A stretch of 44,464 nt of DNA from UHGV virus genome UHGV-0192852; one strand, written 5' to 3'. Below the pieces are notes generated by a model. The model had not been told where the DNA came from. It ran no database searches and was given only the letters and a program-made list of their open reading frames with translations. The position numbers and the translations under genes were made by a program. Positions 4,981 through 31,324 of this stretch are shown piece by piece; position 1 is the first letter of the stretch, and the number at the start of each line of letters is the position of its first letter. Origin of the DNA: a virus.

Positions 4981-5010
4981 TTTGGTCGCTTAAATAGCGG
5001 GTGATAATAT

Positions 5011-5033: not shown

Positions 5034-5049
5034 ATTGGAGAATACTACA

Positions 5050-5726: not shown

Positions 5727-5730
5727 CGAA

Positions 5731-5990: not shown

Positions 5991-5994
5991 ACCC

Positions 5995-6042: not shown

Positions 6043-6110
6043 AATAAGGTTTGTTTTAAATTCGCTGATACAATAACCGACGGCAACTGCATAAAAAGGG
6101 GGACTGCATA

Positions 6111-8753: not shown

Positions 8754-8760
8754 TAAAATG

Positions 8761-8793
8761 GCCCTCACATCCATCGTGGGGGCTTTTTTTTTT
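8761..8793 (+). terminator. rho-independent terminator/attenuator after tape measure gene
   Basis: 8-bp stem GCCCTCAC/GTGGGGGC (one G-U pair), 7-nt loop, then T10 run. Confidence 0.6.
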
Positions 8794-10178: not shown

Positions 10179-10180
10179 TC

Positions 10181-14945: not shown

Positions 14946-14950
14946 CATAC

Positions 14951-14972
14951 GGGGCTTTGGCCCCTTTCTTTT
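14951..14972 (+). terminator. rho-independent terminator after J
   Basis: GGGGC-TTTG-GCCCC hairpin followed by TTTCTTTT. Confidence 0.65.
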
Positions 14973-14983
14973 GGAGGTAATGT

Positions 14984-15286
14984 ATGTCTTTCGGAGTCGA
15001 AACATGGGACGCGCAAGGGCGACCGAACAACTACGGGATCAAGCCGGTATCGGTTGCAGGAATCATTAAATTAGCAACTGGGCAAACATCGGGATCGTGG
15101 TCGTTCACTATTCCGTCTGGGATGAAAGTAGGATTCGCGGTTACGCTGGACGAGGGTGGGACAACGGTAGGCAGGGCCATCCGCGCGAGCGGAAATACAA
15201 TAACTGTGTCGGCAGCAAACAGTGTGGGTATCGGCAACTATCCCGCGTCCGCGTGCGAGGTAGTAGTTTTTGTGGAGAAAGCATAA
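14984..15286 (+). CDS. hypothetical protein (possible tail fibre-associated)
   Basis: 100-aa ORF with GGAGG RBS between J and tail fibre genes. Confidence 0.5.
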   Translation: MSFGVETWDAQGRPNNYGIKPVSVAGIIKLATGQTSGSWSFTIPSGMKVGFAVTLDEGGTTVGRAIRASGNTITVSAANSVGIGNYPASACEVVVFVEKA

Positions 15287-15288
15287 AA

Positions 15289-15960
15289 ATGGCAAACTTT
15301 GGCGCATTAATTGATAACAACAATGGCAACCCATTCGTCACGCCAAACTCAACGCCGTTCGTGCTGTACGCAAAGGCATCTGCAAATTCAGTTGACGCGG
15401 GCGCGGACTATAAAACCGCGAACGGGAGCGTGGATATCCCCGCGAACTACCCGGCGATGGTGTTCATGCGGTCAAACAACCGTTGCGTCCTGGCAGCGTC
15501 ACGATCTGGAAACAGGATAGTATTCAGCGGAAGCATCCAGGGGCGGAACAACCCGCATTTCACGGTAACAGCGTACATATTCGCAAGATTCCCTCAACCG
15601 CTGCCACGATGGGGCTTTGCAATTTGGGACGCCAGCGGGACTTGCATACTGACCAACGAGAGCAAAGTTCTCACGGATTTAGTCACAGTCGGCAGCTTCG
15701 GTAATAACGGCGGGATCAACATAGACCAGACGCTGCCGGGTAAGTACGCCGTATCGCCGATGTTAATGGGTGCTACTCTTATTCAGATATTTGTGCAAGG
15801 CCAGCCGCAGATTATTCAGATCTCTGCGGGGGCCGGCGCTTACGACAACGGGAGCGGCACGCGTATTAACGCCGTGGCGACACAGGCGGGGTCGGGTAAC
15901 GTTGCTGGGTATCAAAACACGGGGGTCGCTCTGACGGCAATTAACGTGGATGGGATATGA
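15289..15960 (+). CDS. hypothetical protein (possible tail fibre-associated)
   Basis: ATG 15289 in frame within track ORF 15097..15960, immediately after previous stop; Gly/Asn/Ala-rich. Confidence 0.5.
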   Translation: MANFGALIDNNNGNPFVTPNSTPFVLYAKASANSVDAGADYKTANGSVDIPANYPAMVFMRSNNRCVLAASRSGNRIVFSGSIQGRNNPHFTVTAYIFARFPQPLPRWGFAIWDASGTCILTNESKVLTDLVTVGSFGNNGGINIDQTLPGKYAVSPMLMGATLIQIFVQGQPQIIQISAGAGAYDNGSGTRINAVATQAGSGNVAGYQNTGVALTAINVDGI

Positions 15961-15978
15961 AAAAGCCACTTTCGTGGC

Positions 15979-16197
15979 TTATTTGCAGGTCGTCCTTTTG
16001 AAGTGGTCAACCGATACATACTGGAAGTTGAACGGGTATCCCGCCCTTAGCATTTTATGACCGCCGAAGTCGGCTACCCCAAAAACAGGGACAGAATACT
16101 CCATGCCGCTATTCACATATGTCGCGTCGCAGACCTTAGACGGCATAGTGGCACACCCTGATAGAAGGACCGCACAAATCATAATTAAAGTTTTCAT
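15979..16197 (-). CDS. small lipoprotein, candidate superinfection-exclusion protein (Cor/Llp-like)
   Basis: MKTLIMICAVLLSGC signal peptide with lipobox; CAGGAGAT RBS; divergent from and adjacent to tail fibre gene. Confidence 0.55.
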   Translation of the reverse strand: MKTLIMICAVLLSGCATMPSKVCDATYVNSGMEYSVPVFGVADFGGHKMLRAGYPFNFQYVSVDHFKRTTCK

Positions 16198-16277
16198 GGT
16201 ATCATCTCCTGTATTGGGTTGTGTTTTAGTATTACACCGCTCAATCAAGAATGCAACCAATTTAAGAGGATTTAGCT

Positions 16278-18659: not shown

Positions 18660-18665
18660 GAATAA

Positions 18666-18688
18666 GGGGCCATACGGCCCTTTTTTTT
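18666..18688 (+). terminator. rho-independent terminator after tail fibre (convergent with minus-strand block)
   Basis: GGGGCC-ATAC-GGCCC hairpin followed by T8. Confidence 0.75.
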
Positions 18689-19262
18689 AGTTTGAGTTTT
18701 CCCAGTCCATTTTGCGCCGCACTAGCGGACTTTCGTAGTATTCCTTGCCTTCTACTTCCACCAGGGGCCAGTCGTTCACGATGACGTATGGCTCTGCGAT
18801 ATCCTCAATCACGCCGTGCGCGCTATGTTGCCCGAACGACACACCCACCAGAATAACACCGGCAACACGACGGGTGAGATACTCCCGAGCGCAACGCGCC
18901 TCTACCAGTCCGCGACGGATGCCGCTGGTGGCTTTCACCTCGTATGTCCAAACAGCATCGATCATGTGCTCGCGGTAGTCTGGGCCGGACTTAACCTTGC
19001 GCTTACCGACCATGATAATATCGCCGCGGTCGATGGTATTGGCGCTGAACAGGCCGGTACGCATCAGTAAGCCTTGCGGTATGCAACTGCGCCCACCTGC
19101 CTGCCCCTCAAGGTACATGCCCGCAAACATCTCGCCCAGCACACCGACGAGACGGCTTTGTTTACACGCGTCAGACTTTAAACGCCACTGGTCAAACTCG
19201 ATGCTTGCTAACATTGCCGCCAGGTGGAATTGTTTACCGGTTATTTCAAATTCGCCGAACAT
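18687..19262 (-). CDS. hypothetical protein
   Basis: 191-aa ORF, last gene of minus-strand block; possible D-x5-EVK motif but no confident family assignment. Confidence 0.5.
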   Translation of the reverse strand: MFGEFEITGKQFHLAAMLASIEFDQWRLKSDACKQSRLVGVLGEMFAGMYLEGQAGGRSCIPQGLLMRTGLFSANTIDRGDIIMVGKRKVKSGPDYREHMIDAVWTYEVKATSGIRRGLVEARCAREYLTRRVAGVILVGVSFGQHSAHGVIEDIAEPYVIVNDWPLVEVEGKEYYESPLVRRKMDWENSN

Positions 19263-19304
19263 TGTGAATCCCTCATTGCTGCGGGCCGAAGCCCGCGATT
19301 AGAA

Positions 19305-19898
19305 TTATTTAAGTGCGCTAGTCACCAGTGTTTTTTCCATGTTGCGGAAGTCTTCCGGCGTCATGAGAATTTGGGACCCGTCTTCGCCAGTGTGCACGAC
19401 CATAGGCTGGACGTCCAGGGCTACAGCACCGAAATTAGCGGCTTTAACAGTCTTTCCGAACGAGGCAACCGTATCCTCGGCAACGCGCATTGCACTGTTA
19501 TATGCATTGATCCCGCCATCCAGGCGCACGGACAGGTCCGAAGGCTTGAACGCGCCGCCGGTCTTGATAGGCCAACCCTTGAGGCTGTCGAATTGCGCTG
19601 CCGTTGTATCGATCTGAATCTCGTCATGCACGGTCATGTAAGACTCGCCCAGCAGTGCGGCATACGCAACCAGGTCCACGATGTTATCTTCCTTATGCTT
19701 GCGGTGCTGGCGCACCAGCTTCAGGCAGATCAGGAAGGTCCATGCTTCTTGCTCGGTCAGATCGCGACCGGTAAGCGCGTTAAACACGGCAGCTACTTGA
19801 CCTGCGACGCGTTCCTCTTTTGCGCCGTCATAGCCGTTTTCTTTCCCGCGCTGTTCCATAGTGGTGGCGGCGTTCTGGCAATATTCGTATGCTTTCAT
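19305..19898 (-). CDS. hypothetical protein
   Basis: ATG at 19898 (MKAYEY...) with AAAGGAAAAC upstream; track ORF extends to 19988 but overlaps the upstream gene. Confidence 0.5.
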   Translation of the reverse strand: MKAYEYCQNAATTMEQRGKENGYDGAKEERVAGQVAAVFNALTGRDLTEQEAWTFLICLKLVRQHRKHKEDNIVDLVAYAALLGESYMTVHDEIQIDTTAAQFDSLKGWPIKTGGAFKPSDLSVRLDGGINAYNSAMRVAEDTVASFGKTVKAANFGAVALDVQPMVVHTGEDGSQILMTPEDFRNMEKTLVTSALK

Positions 19899-19952
19899 GA
19901 TGTTTTCCTTTTTAGTGGGAGGCAATACCGCCTCCCGACGAGTTAAATATAG

Positions 19953-19974
19953 TGCAACCAACCTATTGGTTGCA
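19953..19974. promoter_or_regulatory. perfect 22-bp palindromic operator-like site
   Basis: TGCAACCAA-CCTA-TTGGTTGCA; on minus strand followed by CTATATT (-10-like) upstream of gene 19305..19898. Confidence 0.6.
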
Positions 19975-20433
19975 AGTGAATTTTGCAACGTTTATCGCGT
20001 AAATTTTCGGGACCAAATCTCCGCACGCCCGACGAATTGCCGCGATGTTCTTCTCGCAATCTTCAATGATGACCAGTTCCGACACGTCCGCATAGCAGAC
20101 CATTTTGAACACGGCGCACGCCTTAAACTCTGGCGGCGGGGTATCGTCCAGCATGTGGCGCATAAACAACCGGCCTGTCGGGAATACTTCCAGTTGTTCG
20201 GCGGTGGTGTCCCAACATTCTCGCTGCCGGTTGGTCAGATACGCGATCTCGAAGCCTTGCTCTTTATACATGCGCAACAACGGCAGCATATCCATGTTCA
20301 GTTCTTCGCGGACGTGCGCTTTGTGCCACTTCGCCCAAAAGGTGGATTTAGTTTTTATCCCAGGCACCAGGTCGGCACGGGCATCGCTTGAACCGTTAAT
20401 AACGCCATCCAAATCGCAAATCAGTAATTTCAT
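19963..20433 (-). CDS. HAD-superfamily phosphatase (putative nucleotidase / polynucleotide 3'-phosphatase-like)
   Basis: N-terminal LICDLDGVI matches HAD motif I (DxDG). Confidence 0.55.
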   Translation of the reverse strand: MKLLICDLDGVINGSSDARADLVPGIKTKSTFWAKWHKAHVREELNMDMLPLLRMYKEQGFEIAYLTNRQRECWDTTAEQLEVFPTGRLFMRHMLDDTPPPEFKACAVFKMVCYADVSELVIIEDCEKNIAAIRRACGDLVPKIYAINVAKFTCNQ

Positions 20434-20654
20434 TTCAATTCCTCAATCAAATTTGCACGAACAGTACGGGCGGAAAACGTGTCACACACAAGATGACAGC
20501 GGGCAGTCATTACAAGCCAGCCAGTAAGGTCCATGCCCAGGATGTGTTCAGGCCGTGACACGCGACGCACTTTGTTCTCCCTCGGGTTGATTTGGTAGCG
20601 TTTAACAATTTCGTCCACGACGCGCATACTGCGATCAACGATTAAGATATTCAC
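20430..20654 (-). CDS. hypothetical protein
   Basis: 74-aa ORF, GTG start with AAGGAGAA RBS; overlaps 3' end of Dam gene. Confidence 0.45.
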   Translation of the reverse strand: MNILIVDRSMRVVDEIVKRYQINPRENKVRRVSRPEHILGMDLTGWLVMTARCHLVCDTFSARTVRANLIEELK

Positions 20655-21120
20655 GTAGTTCTCCTTCGCTCATTATTTCAATTTGTGCGCTGCCGGTGGG
20701 TGGCGCCTCGTCAAAGATTATCAATTGCTGGCACTTGTTATTGCTCGGCCCGACTTCACCGGTCACAGCATGGATGAATCGTATCCGCCAGTCCAGAAGA
20801 ATTATCAGGTTTGCAGTCTTCCGGGCCAGCTTCGCCCACTTAGTCGACGTGTCCTGATTCAGTAGCATGACAGTCTGGCGACCGTGCGCTGCGCATTCCA
20901 CCCACGGCAGCGGATCGGAGTATGGCGGATTGCACCACTTCCACCCCTTCAACTCTGACCAGTCCACATCAAGCGCGCTGCGATCTGCCGTGAAGTAACG
21001 CGGTAGCAGATGATTGGCATCGCTCGCCGCCATGTCATAACGGAATCGGTACTTCCGGCGCAGCGGTTTAAATAAAGCTGGTGGCGTGCGCCAGCTATCC
21101 TTTTGTTCATTCTCAGTCAT
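20635..21120 (-). CDS. dam: DNA N6-adenine methyltransferase (phage Dam family)
   Basis: WRTPP...F...DMAASDANH...WCNPPY motifs typical of phage Dam MTases; ATG 21120 overlaps upstream stop (ATGA). Confidence 0.75.
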   Translation of the reverse strand: MTENEQKDSWRTPPALFKPLRRKYRFRYDMAASDANHLLPRYFTADRSALDVDWSELKGWKWCNPPYSDPLPWVECAAHGRQTVMLLNQDTSTKWAKLARKTANLIILLDWRIRFIHAVTGEVGPSNNKCQQLIIFDEAPPTGSAQIEIMSEGELREYLNR

Positions 21121-21413
21121 ACGGACAACACGGGCGGAAATCGCACGTACTCCTCGGCGCGCTTGCAATGTTCACGTAGGCCTTCTGCTGTGATGCGGTT
21201 TAACGCAACGCTGGTTGTGTATCCTGTGCGCTGCATAATCCCCATCAATTCGAAAAGTAGTTCGAAGCGCTCCTCTAACTCCTTGCGTACCTTCTTCTCG
21301 CCTTCGTAGCTCGCAAGGTGGGCGTCTGCCAGCGCGTTAGCGCGTTCGGCCTGTTCGCGGGCTTCGAGGCATTGCGCGGCCCAGTAATTTTTCTCTTCTT
21401 GTAAGATTTTCAT
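21117..21413 (-). CDS. hypothetical protein
   Basis: 98-aa ORF with GGAGACAA RBS downstream of promoter 21461..21489. Confidence 0.5.
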   Translation of the reverse strand: MKILQEEKNYWAAQCLEAREQAERANALADAHLASYEGEKKVRKELEERFELLFELMGIMQRTGYTTSVALNRITAEGLREHCKRAEEYVRFPPVLSV

Positions 21414-21430
21414 CGTGTTGTCTCCAGGTA

Positions 21431-21458
21431 TTAAAAAGGGCGTCCAAACCGGACACCC
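21431..21458 (-). terminator. putative terminator overlapping promoter (minus strand)
   Basis: minus-strand GGGTGTCC-GGTTT-GGACGCCC hairpin followed by TTTTTAAT. Confidence 0.45.
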
Positions 21459-21460
21459 TC

Positions 21461-21494
21461 AATATAATGCAACCAATATGGTTATGCAACCAAT
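21461..21494 (-). promoter_or_regulatory. sigma70-like promoter with two TTGGTTGCAT motifs
   Basis: minus strand TTGGTTGCAT-AACCATA-TTGGTTGCAT-TATATTG, i.e. TTGCAT-N17-TATATT; 17-mer CAATATAATGCAACCAA shared with 140..156. Confidence 0.55.
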
Positions 21495-21812
21495 TTACGA
21501 ATAAAAATTTGGGTCGCGCGCAACGTCTACCAGATACAGGTTACTAATGCGGTTGCCGTAATGACCTGGTGTGCGTTGACGGCACACTACGGCATAGCCT
21601 GGAGGGATTGTATTGCCAGTCTCAATAATCCACGCCACGCGTGCGCCGGATAGCGTCTTGCCGTTGTATTCGATACGAGTACCGCCATCGGCAGTGTTAA
21701 GGTTGCCGATCTTGCAGCCTGTGGACTTCAGGCGAATGACGCCGGTCTTGCTGTCGTAGGAAAAAAGCTGATTGGTCATTGCCACTGAAAAGTCGATGGC
21801 TTCGAATGTCAT
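21495..21812 (-). CDS. HNH-family-like protein (NUMOD4/HNH_3-like, apparently degenerate)
   Basis: YDSKTGVIRLK...GARVAWIIETG...NRISNLYLV resembles HNH_3 homing endonucleases, but the expected catalytic His (HIDG) is replaced by RTPGHYG; ATGA overlap with upstream gene. Confidence 0.4.
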   Translation of the reverse strand: MTFEAIDFSVAMTNQLFSYDSKTGVIRLKSTGCKIGNLNTADGGTRIEYNGKTLSGARVAWIIETGNTIPPGYAVVCRQRTPGHYGNRISNLYLVDVARDPNFYS

Positions 21813-22504
21813 TTTAAATTTTCCTCATTTACCGCTATTGCAAAGCCGCGCGGAGTGAGCGACCGGATTAATTTGGTGCGGGCAGATTTGCCTCCGAGGC
21901 GACTATACTGCTTCGAGTACCCATTTTCAACGAAAACAGGTTTCTTCTCTGGCATACGGAAGCCGTTGCCGGTCCATAAGCAGGTCAGCTTCGGATATGA
22001 ATCGCGGGCGTTGATGTATTCCGGGAATAACGGGTGCACGTCATCCTCCGGCAGATATCCACCATACTCCCACGGGTCAAACGAGTGGTCCGGCTTGCGC
22101 CATTGGGTCGATAGCACGCTGCGCGGATTCTCAATCATATATGGCACTTCGAAGAAGTCACCCAGAAAAGCGGCAATCTTCGCGGTGCGCACCGCCTTAA
22201 GCTGAAAGGCCGGGTCTTTGGCCCGCTTGCGCGGGAAAGCTGGCGCACCGCTAACTGCCAGATCCGTACACGGCGGGAACGCATATATGATATCCGGCGT
22301 ACCGAAATCGCCATTCATCGCGCGGTCTACAAAGTCCAGATCAATAAACGCATTGCGATATCGGATCCCGCGACCATAAATCCGGTAGTCCTGGTAAGAC
22401 CCATGATCGGCTTCGGAGTAGTTGAAACAGTAGCATTTGTGCCCCATTTCGGCAGCACGCTCTACCATCAAGCCGCTGCCGTCGAACAATGACCAAAGTA
22501 TCAT
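21809..22504 (-). CDS. putative SAM-dependent DNA methyltransferase with C5-cytosine-MTase-like motifs (short form)
   Basis: motif I-like LFDGSG, motif IV-like FPPCTD (Pro-Cys), motif VI-like IENP; only 231 aa; ATGA overlap with helicase stop. Confidence 0.45.
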   Translation of the reverse strand: MILWSLFDGSGLMVERAAEMGHKCYCFNYSEADHGSYQDYRIYGRGIRYRNAFIDLDFVDRAMNGDFGTPDIIYAFPPCTDLAVSGAPAFPRKRAKDPAFQLKAVRTAKIAAFLGDFFEVPYMIENPRSVLSTQWRKPDHSFDPWEYGGYLPEDDVHPLFPEYINARDSYPKLTCLWTGNGFRMPEKKPVFVENGYSKQYSRLGGKSARTKLIRSLTPRGFAIAVNEENLK

Positions 22505-23925
22505 TTGCGCCCCTTCTTAGCTTTCATGTATTCCATCAAGTCGTCCTGAATATTGCGCTTACTGTCGCGACGTTTGGCGACAAGTTCGTCCAGTGTCCCG
22601 CGCGCCTGGATAATGTAGACGAACACCGGACGAGGGTGCCCGGCTTGCATCTGTCGAACTGGCCCGATACGCTCCACAATCTGCGCAAAGTGCTCATAGT
22701 TCCACGTATCCGAGAAGATTGCCAGATGATGACCTCCGTCCTGCAGGTTAAGGCCGTGACCGGCAGATGCCGGGTGTGCGAACATGATGGGAATCTCACC
22801 CCTGTTCCACGCCTCCATATCCTTGATACCCTGCTTACCTTTGCCCAGCGCTACGCCGTGCGGGAATTTCTTCTTGAGACGTGCCAGGTCATGCTTGTAC
22901 TGGTACGCAACGAGCAACGGGGCGCCGTTCAACTCCTCTACGATACTCTCCAGCGCGTCCAGCTTGGCGTCGTGAATCTTCTCCCACTCGTCGGTCCGTT
23001 CGCCGTCTTCGTCCACCTTATACACGGCACCGGATGCGAGCTGGAGGCACTTGACGGTCTTCGCCGCAGCGTTTGCCGCTTCTACCGTTCCGCTTTCCAG
23101 TTCGGCGAATAGTTCAGCCTCAAACTGGTCGTAAATCTTGCGGGCTTTCTTCGGCAGGTCCACAACAACCGGCGTATAGATTGGCTTGTCGCATCCGAAG
23201 TATTCAGCCGCGTCAACGGTAAGGGAAACGTCGGACAGACGTTGTTGTATTTCTTTCTCGGAGTTCTTTAGCGGAGCGTGCTGCATAGTGAAGCTGCCAG
23301 GCTTAACAGGCTTGCTAATGAACCAGCGGTCGGTAAATGCCTTATAGCTACTGCCTAGGCGTTCGCCACCGTCGACAAACCACGTCTGACCCCATAAGTC
23401 TTTCAGCCCGTTTGGCGCTGGTGTGCCGGTAAGGTTAATCCAGCGCTTGACGTGCTTATGAGCAATCGCTGCCAGTGCTCGGGCGCGCTTACTTCCCTGC
23501 TTGCTACGATAGCCTTTCAGCTTAGTCGATTCATCGGCAACAACGACCGTAAAGGGCCACGCATCGCCGTAATAGTCTACCAGCCACTCAACCACATCGT
23601 AGTTAACACAAACCACGTTAGCGTCGCTCTCAAGCGCTGCGATACGGTCCTTCTCCGGCCCAGTGCCGTCTACGACCAGCAGGGATGAGAACCGCCATTT
23701 CTCCTGCTCCGGGGGCCATGTACCCGACGCAACACGCAGCGGGGCCAGCACCAGTACGCGGTCCTCATGATGGGACAGGACGCCAGTCTGGAACATTTTA
23801 TTCAGCGCCCACATTGTCGCGCCGGTTTTACCGGATCCCATTGTCGCCCAGATATTACATCGCTTATGCTTGAGGATGAACGCGGTTATCAACTTCTGAT
23901 ATTCGCGGCGTCGGAATCGTGCCAT
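22501..23925 (-). CDS. SF2 ATP-dependent helicase (SNF2/DEAD-like)
   Basis: Walker A MGSGKTGAT, DEAD-like VVADESTKL, conserved C-terminal helicase motifs; ATG 23925 (MARFRRRE) chosen to avoid overlap with upstream ORF. Confidence 0.8.
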   Translation of the reverse strand: MARFRRREYQKLITAFILKHKRCNIWATMGSGKTGATMWALNKMFQTGVLSHHEDRVLVLAPLRVASGTWPPEQEKWRFSSLLVVDGTGPEKDRIAALESDANVVCVNYDVVEWLVDYYGDAWPFTVVVADESTKLKGYRSKQGSKRARALAAIAHKHVKRWINLTGTPAPNGLKDLWGQTWFVDGGERLGSSYKAFTDRWFISKPVKPGSFTMQHAPLKNSEKEIQQRLSDVSLTVDAAEYFGCDKPIYTPVVVDLPKKARKIYDQFEAELFAELESGTVEAANAAAKTVKCLQLASGAVYKVDEDGERTDEWEKIHDAKLDALESIVEELNGAPLLVAYQYKHDLARLKKKFPHGVALGKGKQGIKDMEAWNRGEIPIMFAHPASAGHGLNLQDGGHHLAIFSDTWNYEHFAQIVERIGPVRQMQAGHPRPVFVYIIQARGTLDELVAKRRDSKRNIQDDLMEYMKAKKGRK

Positions 23926-23929
23926 GTCG

Positions 23930-24154
23930 TTATTCCGCCTTTTTCCAGACTTCGGTTTCACTGTTCCAGTTCCTTTTTGTGGCGTCGTAGTTGGTGGCGT
24001 GTCCGATGTGCACACCGGTAGCCCGGAAGCTCTTAAATTTTTGCCAGCACACCGTCAACGGCAGCGGATCATTCATGCCCGCAATAAACCATACGCGATC
24101 GCCCGGTTTACATTCGCCCAGCTTGGTGAGTCGGTAATGTTCTTTCATCGTCAT
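23930..24154 (-). CDS. hypothetical protein
   Basis: 74-aa ORF between terminator 24163..24185 and helicase. Confidence 0.45.
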   Translation of the reverse strand: MTMKEHYRLTKLGECKPGDRVWFIAGMNDPLPLTVCWQKFKSFRATGVHIGHATNYDATKRNWNSETEVWKKAE

Positions 24155-24162
24155 GTCTCTCT

Positions 24163-24185
24163 AAAAATGGCGGGACAAGCCCGCC
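24163..24185 (-). terminator. putative intrinsic terminator (minus strand)
   Basis: minus strand GGCGGGC-TTGT-CCCGCC hairpin followed by ATTTTT. Confidence 0.45.
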
Positions 24186-24192
24186 GTATTGA

Positions 24193-24366
24193 TTATTCTT
24201 GTTCTGCACGATAGCGGCGCTGCCGTTCGCGCTCTTTCTTATTGCGGCAAGACTTGCACTCGGCACGATGACCGTCTGGACTTCGCGCAGTCTTACCGGT
24301 GTATTTGTGGAACTGGGACAGCGGCTTGATGCAGCCGCAATTACTACAACGTTTTTCTTCAACCAT
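24193..24366 (-). CDS. small zinc-ribbon protein (57 aa)
   Basis: AGGAGG RBS 8 nt upstream of ATG; CSNCGC...ECKSCRNK Cys pairs; below track size cutoff. Confidence 0.5.
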   Translation of the reverse strand: MVEEKRCSNCGCIKPLSQFHKYTGKTARSPDGHRAECKSCRNKKERERQRRYRAEQE

Positions 24367-24398
24367 TTCTAAGTCCTCCTAACCGGCACACTATACCG

Positions 24399-24677
24399 CT
24401 ATGCGACCAATTCGGCAACCAATAAATCACAGTCGGCTATGTTGTCAATGACGCGAACATCAGCACCGCGGCGTACCATTCGATCATGTTCACGTACCTG
24501 GTGCGGCCTCGGTTTGCCGCCAGGGCGCTTCACTTCTACGAATACCACTTTGCCGTTTATGATTATAATCAGGTCGGGCGCGCCTGAGCGCCCCTCCCAT
24601 ATCACCTTACGGCAGAATCCGCCAACCGCTTTCACCAGCTTCATCAGGTGACTTTGTACCTTGCCTTCTGGTGTCAT
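24399..24677 (-). CDS. VRR-NUC domain nuclease
   Basis: GAPDLIIIINGKVVFVEVKRPGGKPRPHQ matches PD-(D/E)xK VRR-NUC core (D...E.K...Q). Confidence 0.7.
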   Translation of the reverse strand: MTPEGKVQSHLMKLVKAVGGFCRKVIWEGRSGAPDLIIIINGKVVFVEVKRPGGKPRPHQVREHDRMVRRGADVRVIDNIADCDLLVAELVA

Positions 24678-26968
24678 TATTTTCTATACCTGTACATGAT
24701 GTCGCCTTCTGCGGCAAGTGGGAAGCCTTTCGCCCAAATAGGCAGGTCGCACATCAGTGCGCAAAGCTCCTCGGTCGTGTAGTCGTCGGTGTCCGGCACT
24801 TCTGTGATCAATTCGTCGTGTACTGACAGGACTATTTCATAGCCCGCAGCTTCAACGCCAGGCATGGACCACGCGAGGATATCGCGACACAGCGCCTGTA
24901 CGATGTTTTCCGTCAGTTTGCCGCCGTAGGTATACTGGAAGCCCCACTGGCGCGTCGTCTGATTCTCGCCCTGGTATTTGATGCGGGTGCTGGTGCGCTT
25001 CTTGCCGGTGTCTTCGTCGATCTCGGTAGTGACAGACAGCGCGATGCCGGGGTAGCTCATGATGCGCCCCGACGGCAACTCAATTTTCAACCACCAACCG
25101 GCGGCGTTCGGGTCGTCGCGCTCCTCGTCGAAGGTTGGGTCGTGCTTCGCCTTCGTGCGCACAATCTTAAGCGCTTTCCTACCGTCCGGGCGAACGTTCG
25201 CGCCAGCCCAGTATGCTTTGCCCGGATTGCGGATTGCACACAACACCGCGTCCTCAAGCTCGGCCCAAAAGGCTACCGTCTTCGGGTGGGCCTCACGCCA
25301 CATACGTTTGATCGCGTCGCAGGTCAGCCAAACGTTTTTAGGCAGTATGTATGTTGGGCGCTCGTCTTTCTTGCCAGGCTTCGGAGGGCGTTTTGCTTCG
25401 TTAATGCGGGCGTACTCATATCCTCGTTTCGCCGCCGCCCAAATGTGATCCGGGAACGTGCCTTTCATCACGTCAGCCATAGTGTAAAGGTCGAGGCCCA
25501 GGTTTTTAGCGAACTGCAAGAACGCCGCGACGCCGCCACCATAGCCCAGTCCCAATTCACACGCCTTACCGATCTGGCGCAAGTCTTTGCGGTTGGCTTT
25601 AATGTAGTCCGGGTCCAGGCCGAACATCTTACCGGCAGTCTCACAATAGATATCGCGACCGGCCCTAAACACCATTAGCGCGGTTTTCTCGCCCGCGATC
25701 CAGGCAAGTCCACGCCCTTCCACGTTGGAGTAGTCCGCTACGACAAACTTCTTGCCCTTAGCCGGGATAATGCACCCGCGAACGGTCGAGGCTGTTAGCT
25801 TCGATATGTCATACGCCCAGTGCGCTGTCCCGCGTAACAGGGAGTTGATGCCGTTGGTGAGCATGTGCGACCGGACCCAAAAAGCGACGTCGCTCTCGCC
25901 TTCGCGGCGCTTAATCTTCCCTTCGTGATCGTCGCTATACTCGCCGCGTGCCAGGTTTTGGGGCTGGAAGCCTTTACCCGCCCAGCGTAGCGTGCGCTTT
26001 GCCCCTCCATACTGAAGACAACCACGGCGGCGACCATCGGCAGACAGGCCATTGACGAGCGGATTGTATTTAGTCGATGCCGTTGATGACGCCCCGAGGC
26101 GCATCTCAATCAGCGCTTTGCCCTCGTCCGGGAAGTCCGGGTCTTCAAGCAGGTCGTTAAGTGTGGATTTCTGCGCGTTGTGAATCGTGAACGCCGGGGC
26201 AATATCACGCAGAATCGGCAGGAAGTCGTTGCCGGTTAGCTTACCGCCGAACCGTTCCCATGCCTCTTCCTTCAATTCGTCCTTATGCGCCTGCACCGCC
26301 TTGATCGCGGCGTTCGCCAGGTCAACGTCTACGTTGAATCCGCGGTCATTAATCAACTGGTCGATGAGCAGGATTTCATCTTCCTTCGGCGTGTTGCCCC
26401 AGTCCGGTATGCGCCAGTAGACTTCACGCATGGCAACAATATCCAGCGCGGCATAGCGCAGGAATTTTGCCCATTCTTCAGGGTGCGTCTCGCGCGTGTA
26501 GCGGCGGATTTTGTAGGTCTTAGGGGTGGGCTTACAGAATCGTTTAATCAGCGCCTTGCCTGCCTTATCCTTCGCGTGCTCTGCGTCAACGCCCAGCACC
26601 TGGCACTGCATATCGAGGCTACCGGGCAGCGCGTGGCGAAAGGCCATAATCATGGTGTCTTCGATCTGGCTTACCGGCAGGTCAATGCCCCACTTCTCGC
26701 GAATGACCAAGCGGTCAAACAGAAGGCCGTTAGCCATCACGATTTTTGCTTTCTTGCGGGATACCTGGCGGAGCGCCTTGCGCAGTTCACGCGGCATTGT
26801 GGGGGATTCAGTGCAATCCCATGTCTGCACGCGGCCCTCGTCGATGGCGTAGGTGCAAATCATAATCTCGGTTGATGGGTGTTCTGCGTAGGCGTAAGCG
26901 CCGACTTTCTTCAGGTCCACATCGCTGAACGTCTCGGTGTCGAGAAACAGGCGTTCGAAGTCTTTCAT
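24677..26968 (-). CDS. family A DNA polymerase with 3'-5' exonuclease domain
   Basis: N-terminal LDTETFS Exo I motif; R-x-GK...GLGYGGG (motif B-like) and VHDELITEV (motif C); 763 aa. Confidence 0.85.
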   Translation of the reverse strand: MKDFERLFLDTETFSDVDLKKVGAYAYAEHPSTEIMICTYAIDEGRVQTWDCTESPTMPRELRKALRQVSRKKAKIVMANGLLFDRLVIREKWGIDLPVSQIEDTMIMAFRHALPGSLDMQCQVLGVDAEHAKDKAGKALIKRFCKPTPKTYKIRRYTRETHPEEWAKFLRYAALDIVAMREVYWRIPDWGNTPKEDEILLIDQLINDRGFNVDVDLANAAIKAVQAHKDELKEEAWERFGGKLTGNDFLPILRDIAPAFTIHNAQKSTLNDLLEDPDFPDEGKALIEMRLGASSTASTKYNPLVNGLSADGRRRGCLQYGGAKRTLRWAGKGFQPQNLARGEYSDDHEGKIKRREGESDVAFWVRSHMLTNGINSLLRGTAHWAYDISKLTASTVRGCIIPAKGKKFVVADYSNVEGRGLAWIAGEKTALMVFRAGRDIYCETAGKMFGLDPDYIKANRKDLRQIGKACELGLGYGGGVAAFLQFAKNLGLDLYTMADVMKGTFPDHIWAAAKRGYEYARINEAKRPPKPGKKDERPTYILPKNVWLTCDAIKRMWREAHPKTVAFWAELEDAVLCAIRNPGKAYWAGANVRPDGRKALKIVRTKAKHDPTFDEERDDPNAAGWWLKIELPSGRIMSYPGIALSVTTEIDEDTGKKRTSTRIKYQGENQTTRQWGFQYTYGGKLTENIVQALCRDILAWSMPGVEAAGYEIVLSVHDELITEVPDTDDYTTEELCALMCDLPIWAKGFPLAAEGDIMYRYRK

Positions 26969-27135
26969 TGCTTTATCCTCACTACGGCGTCAGCGCTGCC
27001 GATCATGGAGAAGATGCCGTCGGACAGGGTGATTTCTTCGCCGTTGTTGCGAACCTCGGCAACTGTGAAATATTCCCCCAGTAGCTTAGACCATACTTTC
27101 ATTCCGACTTTTACTTCGCTGGCTTTAATCCGCAT
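26965..27135 (-). CDS. small hypothetical protein (56 aa) translationally coupled to DNA polymerase
   Basis: MRIKASEVKVGMKVW...; stop TGA overlaps polymerase ATG (ATGA); below track cutoff. Confidence 0.4.
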   Translation of the reverse strand: MRIKASEVKVGMKVWSKLLGEYFTVAEVRNNGEEITLSDGIFSMIGSADAVVRIKQ

Positions 27136-27152
27136 TTTTCATTGTCCTATTA

Positions 27153-27176
27153 AAAAGCCCGCATTAAGCGGGCTTG
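27153..27176 (-). terminator. rho-independent terminator after SSB gene (minus strand)
   Basis: minus strand GCCCGC-TTAAT-GCGGGC hairpin followed by TTTTT. Confidence 0.65.
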
Positions 27177-27193
27177 AATAGTGGGCTTTGCCC

Positions 27194-27946
27194 TTAACGG
27201 CGGCGACGTTTACGTGGTGCTTCGTCATCGCGTGGCTTACGACGTTTACGTGGTGCTTCGTCTTCGTCGTCGTCATCGCGGCGCTTGGATTTCTTGGACT
27301 TGCGCGGTTTTTCATCTCCATCATCGTCATCACGACGTTTTAACTTTTTGGATTTACGCGGTGCTTCGTCTTCGTCATCATCCAGGTCGTCGTCAGAGCA
27401 AGATGCACCGCCGCCACCACCGAAGGAATCACCATCGTCACGGAAGCGCATACCAAGCAGACCACAGCCTAAGCCTTTGCCGTTGGTATTGTTCCAGGCC
27501 CAAATATCTAATGAAACGTTGCAATAGCAACCGGAATATATTTCCTTCCCTTCGATTTCGTCGCCGTCGATGGTCAGACCCTGCTCCGTCTGCTTCTCGC
27601 CTTCGGAAGTCTGGATGATAGGCTGTTTGAATGATTTGGCATTGATGTACAGCTTTCCTTCAAACTCTTCCGTCACTTCTTCACGCTCGTCACCATCACG
27701 AACTGCACATTCTTTCGAATCCTGTGCGTAGTGGCGGTCCATCCACTTATCGGCGTTCTTTTCAGACTTCAGCTTTTCGGTGAGCACTGCGCGTGCCGCC
27801 GCTTCCACTTTGTCCACCTGCGGATCTTCTTTATCAAGAATAATCACCGCACGATATGCCGGTTTTTGTCCATCCTTTTTTGGGGTATCACGCTCCCAAA
27901 TGTTAAGGAAACATACGCGCACATTTTTCAGGTTGACCTTAGCCAT
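27194..27946 (-). CDS. single-strand DNA-binding protein-like (phage gp2.5/DUF2815-like) with repetitive acidic/basic C-terminal tail
   Basis: GAGGA RBS before ATG 27946 (MAKVNLKNVRVCFLNIWE); C-terminus has three [PRK(S/R)KK-KRR][DDDD-DE] blocks encoded by tandem DNA repeats; family assignment is from memory. Confidence 0.5.
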   Translation of the reverse strand: MAKVNLKNVRVCFLNIWERDTPKKDGQKPAYRAVIILDKEDPQVDKVEAAARAVLTEKLKSEKNADKWMDRHYAQDSKECAVRDGDEREEVTEEFEGKLYINAKSFKQPIIQTSEGEKQTEQGLTIDGDEIEGKEIYSGCYCNVSLDIWAWNNTNGKGLGCGLLGMRFRDDGDSFGGGGGASCSDDDLDDDEDEAPRKSKKLKRRDDDDGDEKPRKSKKSKRRDDDDEDEAPRKRRKPRDDEAPRKRRRR

Positions 27947-28003
27947 TTTCCAATTCCTCATTTTCACATGTATCGGGGTTATTGTGAGCCACCCCGTTCG
28001 GCT

Positions 28004-28026
28004 TGGTTGCTAATTTACTTGGTTGC
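28004..28026. promoter_or_regulatory. paired TTGGTTGC motifs upstream of SSB gene
   Basis: TTGGTTGC at 28004..28011 and 28019..28026 in intergenic region 27947..28036. Confidence 0.45.
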
Positions 28027-28036
28027 GCCTAAGCGG

Positions 28037-28279
28037 TCAAGCACTTTCATTAAAAAGATTTCTGGTAACGTAGTTGGTGGCGTTCTCGATCCAGCTTAAC
28101 GGCGGTCGGTCGCCATGTCTCGCGATCCACTCCACGGCGATGGTGCTGTAACCATCATCCAGCCAGCGGGTCGGATGGCGAATCATCCAGGCCACCATTA
28201 ACACGCCTTGCACGCAATGCAGGATAAAACCCAGCGCGCCGAGCAAAAACATCAATAAGATTGCAAATACTTTATTCAT
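28037..28279 (-). CDS. small membrane protein
   Basis: 80-aa ORF with N-terminal hydrophobic segments (VFAILLMFLLGALGFIL). Confidence 0.5.
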   Translation of the reverse strand: MNKVFAILLMFLLGALGFILHCVQGVLMVAWMIRHPTRWLDDGYSTIAVEWIARHGDRPPLSWIENATNYVTRNLFNESA

Positions 28280-29702
28280 TGCTTAAGTCCTCGTCAGTAG
28301 CTTCGGACCACGCAGGGCGCTGGTCGTCGATTGGGGCTAATACCGGTTTAGCCGGTGCGCGTGTGATTTTATCACACAACTTCGCCCATACTTTCGGCTT
28401 CTCGTCCTTCAATACCTTCTCGGCGTCGGTAGGACTGAGTAATGTTTCTTTGTACATCACATCGCGCTTGATCCGGGCCTTCGTGAAGATTTCAATCACT
28501 TCGCTCTCGTCGGCCCATTTGCGAACACCAGCTTTACCGGCAACCATCTTGAGGCCCAGCGATTCACCATCTCCCGCCATTACGGCCTTGAACACTGCGG
28601 ACTCGATAGCCTTGATGTGCTGGCGCATTGCGTCTAGACCTTCGTATGCCTTACGCAGTTCTTCCGTGGTCATCGCCCCTGGCGCTTCTTCCTTCTTGCC
28701 CCGCTTCGCACGTCGTGCCGCTTTCCGGGCTTCGCTGGCCATATTGCGGTCGTGGTTGGCGCATTCTTCCTCTGTCGCCACGCTCACGTCGTCGCCCAGG
28801 TCTTCGTCTGTTGCCGTTGGTGGGGTCATCGTGTCAATTGCGGCCTTAGCGCGGGCACTACACTGACCCGCAAATCGGCACCACTGGCACGCGTCAACGC
28901 TCGGGCGGAAGTCGGCACGGGTAAGCCCCTTCTTTCCTCGGGTGTACGCTTCCAGGGCGGCAATAGCGCGCTTGGATGCAAACTTCGAGAATATTTCCAG
29001 CGCTTCCACTGAAATATCCCACTCTGACGCCCCGCCGCAATACGGTTGGAAGATAACCAGGCGAACGGTCGTAATGTCGTACATAGTTTGCAGCTTGCGA
29101 AGCAGGCCCAGCGCATACAACATAAGCTGTTTGTTTTCTTTCGCCTCGACCTTATGTCGCCCGGTCTTCAGGTCGCCAACGATAAGCATGTATGTACCGT
29201 CGGTCTTCTTCATGACCATGACCATATCGGCAGTACCGAACGTCTTCACCTTGTTGCCGTCCATCTCAAAGCCAGGATGCAAGACTCGGGTCAGATCGGC
29301 GCGCATCTCAAGCTGGACAAACTCCGCCACTTCGAGGAGCGGTCGCCAGTGGTCGATGTACGCGTCGCACTGTTTCACCATGTCGTCATTGACCAGTACG
29401 CCGCCTTTCGGCGCTTTCGGGTGTGCCTTTACTGGCCCCTTTCCTTCGTTCTCGACGTAGCACCCTTTATACGTCTTCGCGGTTATTTTCTTCTCACCGG
29501 CGATAATGCGGTTTAGCACCACTTCAGATACGGTGTGCATACTCGTACCGTTAATCGCGGCTTGCCCGGATTCGTTCGGGATATCTTTTTCGACCACCAG
29601 GGCGGCGGGGCACCCCATCCATTTTTTAGATCCCGATGGCCCGAGTAATGAGTGTTCTGTATTGCTACCTGATTGTGTTTTGCGCTTTGGTTTAATAGCC
29701 AT
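28272..29702 (-). CDS. PD-(D/E)xK nuclease with Cas4-like Cys cluster (DUF2800-like recombination exonuclease)
   Basis: GDLKTGRHKVEAKENKQLMLYALG nuclease core and C-terminal CQWCRFAGQC Cys cluster; 476 aa. Confidence 0.6.
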   Translation of the reverse strand: MAIKPKRKTQSGSNTEHSLLGPSGSKKWMGCPAALVVEKDIPNESGQAAINGTSMHTVSEVVLNRIIAGEKKITAKTYKGCYVENEGKGPVKAHPKAPKGGVLVNDDMVKQCDAYIDHWRPLLEVAEFVQLEMRADLTRVLHPGFEMDGNKVKTFGTADMVMVMKKTDGTYMLIVGDLKTGRHKVEAKENKQLMLYALGLLRKLQTMYDITTVRLVIFQPYCGGASEWDISVEALEIFSKFASKRAIAALEAYTRGKKGLTRADFRPSVDACQWCRFAGQCSARAKAAIDTMTPPTATDEDLGDDVSVATEEECANHDRNMASEARKAARRAKRGKKEEAPGAMTTEELRKAYEGLDAMRQHIKAIESAVFKAVMAGDGESLGLKMVAGKAGVRKWADESEVIEIFTKARIKRDVMYKETLLSPTDAEKVLKDEKPKVWAKLCDKITRAPAKPVLAPIDDQRPAWSEATDEDLSNE

Positions 29703-29890
29703 TATTCAACCCTTGTAAACTGAGCAATGTAATAATCGTGTTCAACATTGGCCCGCTTCGCGGCGTCGTTCATGGTTGATGCTAGTCCGCGGGCTTGCGT
29801 CCAGCAGCAATTCCAGTTTTGATTCATAATAATTTCTGGTTGCTCGTTGCCGGTAATACGGCAACGAAATAAAACAAAGAATATAGCCAT
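29702..29890 (-). CDS. hypothetical protein
   Basis: 62-aa ORF in early operon. Confidence 0.35.
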   Translation of the reverse strand: MAIFFVLFRCRITGNEQPEIIMNQNWNCCWTQARGLASTMNDAAKRANVEHDYYIAQFTRVE

Positions 29891-30141
29891 TATTTCGTCT
29901 CCCAGCGGTCAATCGTTCTTGCTTCGGATGCAACTGCAAAGCGAACATATTCCAGATTGGAATCCGCCCAAATATAAAAGTCGGGATTAGTAAAGGTGGT
30001 GCACTTAATTTGCGCGGGGGTATTGCGGCGTTTGTCTATTACGGCAACGCGTGACTGAAAATAGCCGATGCGTTCGAATAGCCAATAATACGGGCGTTGG
30101 TCGCGGGAGTCCACCGCCTCGATTAGCGTGAAGCGTGCCAT
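29890..30141 (-). CDS. hypothetical protein
   Basis: 83-aa ORF in early operon. Confidence 0.4.
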   Translation of the reverse strand: MARFTLIEAVDSRDQRPYYWLFERIGYFQSRVAVIDKRRNTPAQIKCTTFTNPDFYIWADSNLEYVRFAVASEARTIDRWETK

Positions 30142-30154
30142 TGTCTCGTCCTCT

Positions 30155-30181
30155 AAAAAGAGGCCCGCTAATCTGCGGGCC
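30155..30181 (-). terminator. putative attenuator/terminator within early operon (minus strand)
   Basis: minus strand GGCCCGC-AGATTA-GCGGGCC hairpin followed by TCTTTTTA. Confidence 0.45.
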
Positions 30182-30189
30182 GGATAATA

Positions 30190-30592
30190 TTAATCTTCCA
30201 GTTCGAAATAAGTTTCGACGATTTCTTTAAGATCTTTGTGGAAGTCTTCGACGTCGTCATCTTCCAGCTTGGCGATTGATTTGATCTCGAACGATTCCAG
30301 CAGGTCGTCGAATTCGTCGTTCGCGTCATCATCATCACCGCCTGCAATAATAGCGGCATACTGCTTGATTTCGTCGCGCATTTCTGCCAGCGGATCAGCT
30401 TCTTTCTTACCTTTGCCTTTCGCTTTCTTAGTCTTCGCCGGAGCTTCTTCTTCGACTACTTCTTTTTTGGCCTTAGACGGCTTCTTGTCTTCCTGCTTAC
30501 CCACGGCAGCGCCAACGGTTTCATAATGCTTTGCAATGGTTTCCAGTGCTACTACGCCGCGAGTGATCAGGTTTACGATTTGTTCAAACATG
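30190..30592 (-). CDS. hypothetical Lys-rich/acidic protein
   Basis: ATG 30592 (MFEQIVNL...) with GGAGAT RBS; first gene after the leftward early promoter; acidic C-terminus. Confidence 0.5.
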
Positions 30593-30787
30593 GTATATCT
30601 CCGATTGGTTAAGTTTAGGTGTCGGCAGTTAACTTCGTCGGTGGCCTTAACATATTGCCCGGTTGCGCGTTCTCCCGTTCGGGTAGTGGACCGGGTTATA
30701 TAATCACGGTTGGGAATCCTGACACTTCGATCCGGCCCCTGCGTTGCCCCTCTCCAGTTTGCGTCCTGCATCCTGTCGACGGGGTGA

Positions 30788-30817
30788 ATAATAGATTGGT
30801 TGCAGGATGGGTGTCAA
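30788..30817 (-). promoter_or_regulatory. leftward early promoter (sigma70-like)
   Basis: minus strand TTGACA-N18-TATTAT with a TGCAACCAAT motif in the spacer. Confidence 0.6.
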
Positions 30818-30828
30818 CAACTAATTTC

Positions 30829-30862
30829 AAAAAAAAAGCGCCGAGGCAAAATGCGACGGCGC
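30829..30862 (-). terminator. minus-strand terminator immediately upstream of the leftward early promoter
   Basis: minus strand GCGCCG-13 nt loop-CGGCGC followed by T9. Confidence 0.5.
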
Positions 30863-30994
30863 TAACCAATAAGAGACAATGAGACGGAAAGTATTATTAC
30901 ACGCGTGCGCGCCCGTTTCAATATTCCAGAGGAGTTGACACCCTGCGGTTTTAGGTGTAGTTTCATTGGTCATTAACCAACTGGGGGCAGAACA

Positions 30995-31324
30995 ATGAAT
31001 GTAAACGACGCAATCGAAATGTTAACTAAGACTGTTTGCAGTGAGACTAGCCGGTCCTGGGCGTATACCGATGCCGTGGGTGCGGTGCTATTTGAAATCG
31101 AACGACTGCGCAGTGTCGAAAAAGAATTACGCGCCAGGCTGGAATTGCTCAATGGCACGGCAGCAAGCAAGCTGCAAAAGCACAATGAAGAAATGGAAGA
31201 ATACAAAAAGCAGGTTATCCGTTTGCGCGCCGAGGGTAAATCCTGGGCGATGATTGCCGAGTTGACCGGAATTAATCAGAGCACAGTGCGCTCCTGGGTA
31301 CGCAATAATAAAACTTCTAAGTAA
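30995..31324 (+). CDS. HTH DNA-binding regulator
   Basis: C-terminal GKSWAMIAELTGINQSTVRSWVRN helix-turn-helix; first rightward gene of the control region, upstream of primase. Confidence 0.6.
   Translation: MNVNDAIEMLTKTVCSETSRSWAYTDAVGAVLFEIERLRSVEKELRARLELLNGTAASKLQKHNEEMEEYKKQVIRLRAEGKSWAMIAELTGINQSTVRSWVRNNKTSK

Follow-up and report, generated by a model that had tools for sequence, protein, structure and literature searches.

The stretch of DNA analysed here (the window) covers 44,464 nucleotides (nt) of UHGV virus genome UHGV-0192852. It belongs to a Dhillonvirus, i.e., an HK578-like virulent Escherichia coli siphophage: a 1.3-kb query matched 176 phage records with 80–99% identity, nearly all of them Escherichia and Shigella phages of the genus Dhillonvirus. 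Region 30593–30994 is the single divergent intergenic junction of the genome, the layout being taken from the annotation of the close relative Pubbukkers. In that annotation, the structural genes lie on one strand and a DNA-metabolism block of ~13 kb lies leftward on the other; rightward from the junction come a helix-turn-helix (HTH) gene, primase/helicase, small genes, lysis genes, terminase, and then the structural genes. In this virulent phage, the region holds the divergent early promoters, and its leftward transcript is predicted to open with a large structured RNA domain. As judged from comparative sequence analysis, this RNA is a real, covariation-supported, and apparently undescribed family that is shared laterally between virulent siphophages of Enterobacteriaceae. 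The features of the leftward unit, all on the minus strand, are as follows.

30817..30788, minus strand: promoter P_L, TTGACA-N18-TATTAT, 11/12 consensus positions, the best promoter-like match of the window, with a predicted start near 30780-81
30780..30621, minus strand: structured non-coding RNA domain, ~160 nt long and folded into six helices, with which the P_L transcript is predicted to begin; one copy per genome
30773..30780, minus strand: 5' strand of helix P0, GUCGACAG, which pairs with CUGCCGAC (30621-30628) and closes the domain a few nucleotides from the predicted 5' end
30760..30770, minus strand: hairpin P1, UGC-AGGAC-GCA, whose apical (A)GGA loop is conserved
30746..30750, minus strand: 5' strand of helix P2, GGGGC of GGAGAGGGGC, which pairs with GCC(A)CC at 30640-30645 (consensus GGRGC:GCY(A)CC)
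30718..30735, minus strand: P3 hairpin, CCGGAUC-GAA-G(U)GUCAGG
30658..30695, minus strand: P4 bipartite hairpin with outer stem CCCGGU/ACCGGG, conserved internal loop CCACUA / AGAACGCGCA, and inner stem-loop CCC-GAAC-GGG
30592..30620, minus strand: A/C-rich unstructured linker, Shine-Dalgarno sequence (SD) GGAG at 30602..30599, and spacer to the ATG of gene 1
30591..30190, minus strand: gene 1, encoding an acidic protein of 133 amino acids (aa) with an isoelectric point (pI) of 4.6, PHROG 3127

A preliminary description of the region had noted a leader of about 190 nt. That length holds when counted from the predicted start near 30780, and the ATG of the leftward gene is at 30591 rather than 30592; however, the leader is not a plain one, since ~160 nt of it form an optional structured RNA. 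The six helices (P0–P4) were defined by eye, and realignment with a covariance model replaced RNAalifold on the raw MAFFT alignment, which mis-paired the variable stems. The length of the element is strictly conserved (172–174 nt including fixed flanks). About 50 nucleotides are invariant, the invariant loops and junctions being the apical AGGA, GGAGAGG, and AGGAUUCCYAACCGUGA, and the inner stem of P4 is mostly capped by a GNRA loop. The covariance model was built from 19 non-Dhillonvirus sequences only; its sole match in the window was 30620..30792 on the minus strand (123.8 bits, E = 1e-32). One copy was found in the complete Pubbukkers genome, and no match was obtained in the element-less relatives or in phage T1.

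In the model-fitted alignment (A6, 36 distinct sequences), 93.2% of the cells were paired compared with 29–40% in slid controls, and 20 of the 32 pairs were changed on both sides. Each helix had at least one such doubly changed pair, and none of 500 shuffles reached the observed values. The structure-blind MAFFT alignment (A3, 26 sequences), evaluated over the 19 pairs that are in register in it, gave 94.1% paired cells against 23–49% in slid controls, with double changes in 9 of the 19 pairs. The RNA strand is fixed by conserved U·G pairs, which occur in 34 (a pair in P3) and 22 of the 36 sequences.

Helix P0, in which the initial 7–8 nt pair with the final ones, occurs in three sequence families, six of its eight pairs being changed on both sides across subtypes, and the cognate 5'/3' duplexes had a mean energy of −13.5 kcal/mol versus −9.0 for non-cognate ones. 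The P1 stem reads GCAA/UUGC in swan01 and UAUA/UAUA in the sequence L069, with the AGGA loop retained in both. Helix P2 had 100% paired cells and one pair that alternates between A-U (20 sequences) and G-C (16 sequences), a switch that was probably a single evolutionary event. Double changes in P3 comprised G-C to A-U (KMI8), C-G to U-A (L069), and U-A to G-U (L067), in addition to a wobble U·G replaced by U-A (MQ-4 and IME279). The sequence of the P4 outer stem is entirely different from subtype to subtype, with the variants CAUGAU/AUCAUG, CGCAC/GUGCG, CAUUGG/CCAAUG, CUAUC/GAUAG, and CAUAAC/GUUAUG; double changes affected five of its six pairs and all three pairs of the inner stem. Inside Dhillonvirus, the alignment of 19 relatives showed CCCGG/CCGGG, CCAGG/CCUGG, and CCUGG/CCAGG in this stem. 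The compensatory changes in P1 and P3 come from two late IMG/VR additions; the two extra IMG/VR pattern scans gave L067 and L069, plus the chance matches L065 and L068.

The same alignments bear on the possibility that the leader is nothing special, either an N-terminal extension of gene 1 or a neutral leader kept only by recent common descent. The ATG at 30771 opens a frame of 193 aa (30771..30190) that runs through the RNA into gene 1 and is open in most Dhillonviruses. However, this frame is broken in the relatives L008, L014, and L015 and in all non-Dhillonvirus subtypes; the frame analysis found none that is open in all subtypes, for which reason the 193-aa open reading frame (ORF) is considered spurious. 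Substitutions in the stems are compensatory, and the element is found in unrelated genomes with different flanks, so that this explanation is hardly tenable. In several GenBank records, a 'hypothetical protein' is drawn across the RNA (30592-30771, minus strand), probably in error.

A blastn search with the RNA segment alone retrieved Dhillonviruses and unrelated siphophages, with a core of ~52–65 nt at 86–92% identity. The carriers in the family Drexlerviridae were PHB17, swan01 and other Warwickviruses, KMI8, and Motto; further carriers were the Jilinvirus Arya, the unclassified Bas97 HeidiAbel, the Sortsnevirus IME279, Serratia phage MQ-4, and BUCT618. Scanning of metagenomes revealed 14 loci and scanning of the GTDB species representatives one, all on phage-sized contigs. 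The element is optional within one genus: about 134 of the 176 Dhillonvirus records have it and roughly a quarter do not. In four of the 19 aligned relatives, ~150 nt of the leader are missing, and a 13-nt hairpin stands in their place. At the homologous place, the element-less Dhillonviruses have GGGCAUACCGCCC; in the Warwickvirus tinuso, the same promoter leads into GGGCGGC-ACG-GCGUCGCCC, which corresponds to P0 only. Because a plain 5' hairpin replaces the absent domain, the domain seems to have been inserted into the loop of a generic leader hairpin at the 5' terminus.

Rfam 15 gave no match on the element, either at the gathering score over the whole window or at E ≤ 10 on the region and five other subtypes; the weak hits to ncS54 and STnc480 reflect the terminator only. 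The literature searched contained no description of the leader RNA. ARAGORN predicted no tRNA or tmRNA gene in the window, and a tRNA-like reading of P0 with a 3' 'ACC(A)' was dropped, as there is no T-arm beside P0 and the ACC is not universal. P4 is superficially like a type I-E CRISPR repeat, and a CRISPR-repeat mimic (Racr) was considered; its covarying stem bears no relation to that of the repeat. The known Dhillonvirus protein Ksap1 has its gene in another part of the genome and no relation to the region.

In all cases fetched, the element lies in an intergenic gap of 240–260 bp in the same sense as the flanking genes. The −10 box ends ~7 nt before the first conserved nucleotides in every subtype, though the promoters differ, and in several of the fetched phages, an intrinsic terminator stands just upstream of the element's promoter. 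An A/C-rich linker connects P0 to the SD in every subtype (~10–30 nt in most and ~45 nt in Bas97 and MQ-4), and these linkers are unrelated in sequence between subtypes. The first ORFs 3' of 15 elements had no detectable pairwise similarity. The reading that we prefer, tentatively, is that the leader domain is a portable cis-acting 5' leader module.

The architecture also recalls a riboswitch, in which a ligand-binding aptamer would control the downstream ORF. Like aptamers, the element has a closing helix, multi-way junctions with invariant unpaired positions, and a fixed length; unlike them, it has no conserved expression platform (none of the unrelated linkers holds a terminator, and anti-SD pairing is not consistent), no coherent set of downstream genes, these being functionally unrelated, no known ligand class, and no match to an Rfam riboswitch. 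Such a control is therefore very unlikely. A variant with a sequestered SD was rejected after manual inspection, the P0 3' strand having only 3–4 nt of inconsistent complementarity to the SDs.

The RNA might instead act in trans, as a product made abundantly from a strong early promoter that binds a conserved factor of enterobacteria and sequesters or redirects it, the downstream ORF being incidental; RNA polymerase (RNAP), a defence protein, or a regulator that binds RNA would be possible targets. Its occurrence is sporadic and optional, as for anti-defence cargo, with one copy per genome and a core ~92% identical across unrelated phage groups that share host range only; moreover, a domain closed by P0 could persist as a stable fragment. 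On the other hand, in the distinct genomic contexts examined, no terminator directly follows the RNA, and all of them continue into an SD. There is also no similarity to a host RNA, as blastn against 5,426 complete E. coli genomes and 72,556 PLSDB plasmids gave nothing. The P1 loop resembles a CsrA site, but the GGA motifs are not enriched (6 versus 4.3 expected, p = 0.23), which speaks against a CsrA sponge. A trans-acting accessory RNA is thus regarded as unlikely, while by no means negligible.

This explanation draws further support from the BUCT618-like phages, in which the RNA is the constant part of a cassette made up of terminator, promoter, RNA, variable genes, and terminator. Cassettes of a comparable kind are the PeSLs of T4-type phages, reportedly described by Arbiol et al. 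in 2010 as 'mobile regulatory cassettes' in which an early promoter with a stem-loop flanks variable ORFs. Both systems place a conserved promoter and a structured leader before unrelated small early ORFs, are shared between phages, and could mark a site of modular exchange. PeSLs differ in being simple stem-loops of tens of nucleotides, present in many copies per genome and described at the level of DNA recombination, whereas the leader RNA is a large fold under selection, as its compensatory changes show, with one copy per genome. We consider it possible, with some reserve, that the RNA is a new mobile promoter-coupled class of phage RNA acting directly on a conserved enterobacterial machine, which it would serve to reprogramme (the transcribing RNAP, as an antiterminator unrelated to put) or to neutralise (a host defence or regulatory protein), and that virulent siphophages trade it as a self-contained 'promoter + RNA' cassette. 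Tinuso (L064, MN850634.1 5864-7581) has two copies of the promoter block AAATAGCACTTTTTGTTAAAAC...GGCATAATA, ~500 bp apart and flanking two small genes, and one of the copies heads a bare P0-type hairpin leader. This arrangement suggests that promoter-leader blocks may be joints at which recombination shuffles genes.

In the window, the unit consists of P_L, the RNA, gene 1, and a strong terminator at 30181..30162, in this order. The latter lies 539 nt downstream, has 7 G+C pairs, and is followed after ~20 nt by the next ATG at 30141. Since no promoter fits between this terminator and ATG 30141, the two small genes and the PD-(D/E)XK nuclease gene beyond it (30141-28272, minus strand) appear to need read-through. 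The gene-1 protein has a central K/E/D-rich repeat of variable length, giving 133 aa here and 167–173 aa in relatives, and the records of phages bob and welsh annotate a repeat_region in this gene; an early anti-restriction or DNA-mimic role of gene 1 is a guess.

The apparent need for read-through raises antitermination of the type known from HK022, in which the nascent RNA would bind its host RNAP and carry it across 30181..30162 to the nuclease and replication genes. In HK022, put sites are ~70 nt long, have two stem-loops, and occur once per early operon (PMC9378689). The leader RNA resembles putL and putR in being a phage RNA that directly follows an early sigma-70 promoter, and its phages rely on the host RNAP; it is portable and would serve whatever gene lies downstream, and host machinery presumably recognises its conserved nucleotides, the conserved junctions being reminiscent of an RNA docking on a conserved host surface. 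However, the element-less Dhillonviruses retain the same terminator, spacing, and gene order, so read-through appears to be independent of the RNA. The two also differ in size and architecture (~160 nt and six helices against two stem-loops and a triplex), in copy number (one per genome against one per early operon), in phage type (virulent siphophages against temperate lambdoid phages), and in sequence, with no resemblance by eye. Moreover, a put-like activity would defeat the BUCT618-like cassette's own terminator. Antitermination by this RNA is accordingly judged improbable.

A role in replication, with the P_L transcript priming or opening an origin in the manner of ColE1 RNA II or T4 oriF, could be read from the cumulative GC-skew minimum at 30–31 kb, from the single copy per genome, and from the primase or helicase genes that adjoin the element in Dhillonvirus, Arya, Bas97, MQ-4, and PHB17. 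The skew signal is confounded, because the minimum coincides with the switch in gene orientation; in addition, the element is optional within one genus, its neighbours in swan01, KMI8, and BUCT618 are not replication genes, and an iteron-like triple repeat at ~33606-33687 is a better origin candidate. A replication element is therefore highly improbable. The repeats themselves (33606-33687, plus strand) lie just 3' of the primase/helicase stop at 33599 and comprise three direct repeats on ATTGGTTGCC, 32–35 bp apart; the first two, which enclose a half-site TTGGTTAA, read GCGCGCATTGGTTGCC, and the third reads GGTAGTATTGGTTGCC. In appearance they are iteron-like, and they would be a candidate replication origin or regulatory array.

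The preferred reading of a portable cis-acting leader module can be put as follows. The P_L transcript would begin, a few nucleotides from its 5' end, with the RNA domain closed by P0, followed by the linker, the SD, and gene 1. The domain would occupy the loop of the short 5'-terminal hairpin found in the element-less relatives. P0 would keep the 5' end of the mRNA paired and thereby protect it from 5'-end-dependent decay, the invariant loops and junctions would be presented to a host component, and the paired 5' end and the loop contacts would together set the expression of whichever ORF follows. The 5'-terminal stabiliser hairpins of the ompA type in bacterial and phage mRNAs need only a hairpin. 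The leader RNA shares with them a helix that begins ~0–4 nt from the predicted 5' end and leads into a single-stranded A/C-rich stretch with an SD behind it, and in relatives without the element a plain hairpin takes this position; the leader RNA differs by the additional ~140 nt with invariant junctions.

Several points weigh against this reading and the structure beneath it. A plain hairpin would suffice for 5' protection, and a fold of six helices with ~50 invariant nucleotides points to a task more specific than that. Phage genomes are compact, which by itself could account for how close the next SD lies, so that action in cis is a presumption. All transcription starts in the region are predictions. 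The folding energy of the single sequence is unremarkable (z = −0.10), and its minimum-free-energy fold differs from the covariation model. The model-fitted alignments lean towards the model, helix P2 rests on one covarying pair, and there are only ~8–10 independent lineages, so that several of the double changes each reflect one evolutionary event.

Hardly any structured RNAs have been charted in virulent coliphages, and here a large fold with good covariation support is predicted to open the strongest early transcript of a common, genetically tractable genus. Several members of the BASEL collection carry the element, and the same RNA is found in phages of Klebsiella, Enterobacter, and Serratia. 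Since natural 'knock-out' relatives exist and the RNA is widely shared, the role of an early phage leader RNA is directly testable with existing isolates. Should the RNA stabilise its transcript or boost expression, it would be a ready-made portable 5' untranslated region part; should it act on RNAP or on a defence system, a new mechanism would be at hand.

The remaining features of the junction are listed below.

30921..30893, minus strand: promoter P2, TTGAAA-17-AATAAT with a TG (extended −10), 10/12, back to back with P_R
30863..30829, minus strand: intrinsic terminator, composed of a G+C stem of 7 bp, a short inner stem, and U9
30886..30829, minus strand: candidate small RNA of ~58 nt, from promoter P2 (start near 30886) to the terminator, as inferred from the sequence
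30935..30963, plus strand: P_R, TTGACA at 30935-40, 17-nt spacer, and weak −10 TAGTTT at 30958-63, 9/12
30966..30980, no strand assigned: dyad TTGGTCATTAACCAA (TTGGT-CATTA-ACCAA) over the predicted P_R start, a candidate operator
30995..31324, plus strand: HTH gene, an intact ORF for a basic protein of 109 aa (pI 9.2) with a C-terminal HTH, PHROG 9366

The promoters, the terminator, and the regulator gene are real and fairly ordinary, and the promoters are already known at the annotation level: the RefSeq record of HK578 annotates three consensus promoters at homologous places. Both promoter elements named in the preliminary description are present, P_L as described and the rightward TTGACA at 30935..30940 with a weak TAGTTT as its best −10; promoter P2 is an additional leftward promoter that it did not list. 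Only three sites in the whole 44-kb window scored at least 10/12, and two of them (P_L and promoter P2) fall within this 400 bp; the number of promoter-like hits per region was the same as in shuffles. The score of P_R is under the scan threshold, its −10 retaining T1, A2, and T6. In the 19 aligned relatives, the hexamers of P_L, promoter P2, and P_R are invariant while spacer positions vary, at least six of them in P_R. The segment with promoter P2, the terminator, and P_R is confined to Dhillonvirus (155 records). The spacer of P_L holds GCAACCAA, the reverse of the TTGGTTGC motif. The spacer of promoter P2, which is 2 nt shorter in the relative L016, forms a 15-nt alternating pyrimidine-purine G+C tract, CACGCGTGCGCGC(CC), at 30900-30914 (plus strand); this tract could confer Z-DNA formation or supercoil sensitivity.

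The terminator hairpin pairs GCGCCG (30838-43) with CGGCGC (30857-62), is followed by nine U (30837..29), and folds with z = −4.1 versus shuffles; the automated terminator scan missed it because of its 13-nt loop. In L016, the most divergent of the 19 aligned relatives, the stem has the double changes G-C to U-A and G-C to C-G, and an inner A-U pair became G·U, which is a pair in the minus sense only. The plus-strand side has no T-run, so that by sequence the terminator works in the minus sense only. A minus-strand terminator just before P_L, as previously proposed, is thus present and conserved; its description as insulating is incomplete, in that a good promoter of its own (P2) precedes it. 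Promoter P2 would read leftward into this strong terminator ~58 nt away, and therefore the terminator may end a small RNA and not only insulate P_L. The promoter P2-terminator unit may accordingly be a small RNA gene, whose product would consist of a 24-nt unstructured 5' part, CCGUCUCAUUGUCUCUUAUUGGUU, near-invariant in the 19 relatives, and the terminator hairpin with its long U-tail. Within the candidate small RNA, AUUGGUUA (30864-30886, minus strand) is complementary to UAACCAAU (30603-30612, minus strand) just 5' of the gene-1 SD and, over 7 nt, also to UAACCAA in the 5' end of the P_R mRNA (30972-30981, plus strand). As these words are also half-sites of the DNA motif treated below, RNA pairing and protein binding are indistinguishable at these sites. 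The candidate small RNA further contains GUCUCUUA, resembling boxA (CGCUCUUA).

P_R would read rightward into the HTH gene, primase/helicase, and later genes, with the dyad over its predicted start. The HTH gene 30995..31324 is, as had been described, an intact ORF, and its HTH over residues 65–106 exceeds the Pfam cut-offs: HTH_23 at E = 2e-7 (30.9 bits, cut-off 24.6) and Sigma70_r4_2 at E = 2e-6 (27.7 bits, cut-off 25.7), with HTH_28 also above its cut-off. In public records and in PHROG 9366, this gene is named transposase, resolvase, 'Gam', or 'DNA recombination nuclease inhibitor gamma'. These labels look like annotation drift, since only an HTH (sigma-70 region-4-like) is supported. Many GenBank records thus have both a spurious 'hypothetical protein' over the RNA and a mislabelled HTH gene.

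Of the TTGGT-N5-ACCAA dyads reported before the HTH gene, one complete dyad exists (30966-80), and the plural does not hold, as the other copies in the region are only half-sites, ATTGGTT at 30604, 30795, and 30864 (minus strand). In the window, there are three such dyads compared with 1.08 expected, and 5 of 100 shuffles reached three; the other two, at 128-142 and 34082-96, each lie just upstream of a gene, as the third precedes the HTH gene. The dyad gained no support as an RNA hairpin (z = −0.6), and an operator at the DNA level is the better reading. Across the genome, there are 19 copies of ATTGGTT versus 5.7 expected, a count reached by none of 100 shuffles, and TTGGTTGCA with at most one mismatch occurs 26 times versus 12 expected. 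The copies cluster in ~10 intergenic regions, often paired, in spacers, over the −35, or over predicted starts of promoter-like sites; TTGGTTGCA/C was located at 134-156, 16252, 19953-74, 21468-93, 24402-22, 28003-27, 33612-87, 33959, 34051-90, 34599, and 37147-78, with an overlapping promoter-like site exemplified by TTGCAT-17-TATATT at 21493... Owing to this enrichment and to the placement in promoter spacers and over predicted starts, a regulon is plausible, and the motif is probably that of a single phage DNA-binding protein. It would suit an operator, or a promoter element, that a phage protein recognises, with autoregulation of P_R, the HTH protein being a candidate binder only.

The region had been proposed as a central early regulatory switch that governs the early/late transition. 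In favour of this are the single divergent junction, the strongest sigma-70 sites of the genome, the conserved unidirectional terminator, the HTH gene, and the enriched motif; the reading as a switch, including the early/late role, is plausible. No Dhillonvirus transcriptome was found in the literature searched. The earlier remark that no integrase was found agrees with the annotation of Pubbukkers, where neither an integrase nor a CI-like repressor is annotated among the 62 genes, no sensitive search of every ORF having been made. Judged from that annotation, the region is not a lambda-like lysogeny switch with an integrase and a CI/Cro-type repressor pair. It does share with the PL/PR region of lambda-type phages the back-to-back promoters, a dyad operator, here a candidate, where the regulator gene's own promoter starts transcription, and a short unit running from promoter to terminator (oop, PR' 6S RNA). 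It differs in the virulence of the phage, in its regulator, a 109-aa protein with a sigma-70 region-4-like HTH, and in the motif, which also occurs in ~10 other intergenic regions. Elsewhere, the DNA polymerase of Pubbukkers (L004, 29983-33171) is annotated as intein-containing, with an HNH endonuclease nearby; the homologous region of the window lies at ~23.8–27 kb.

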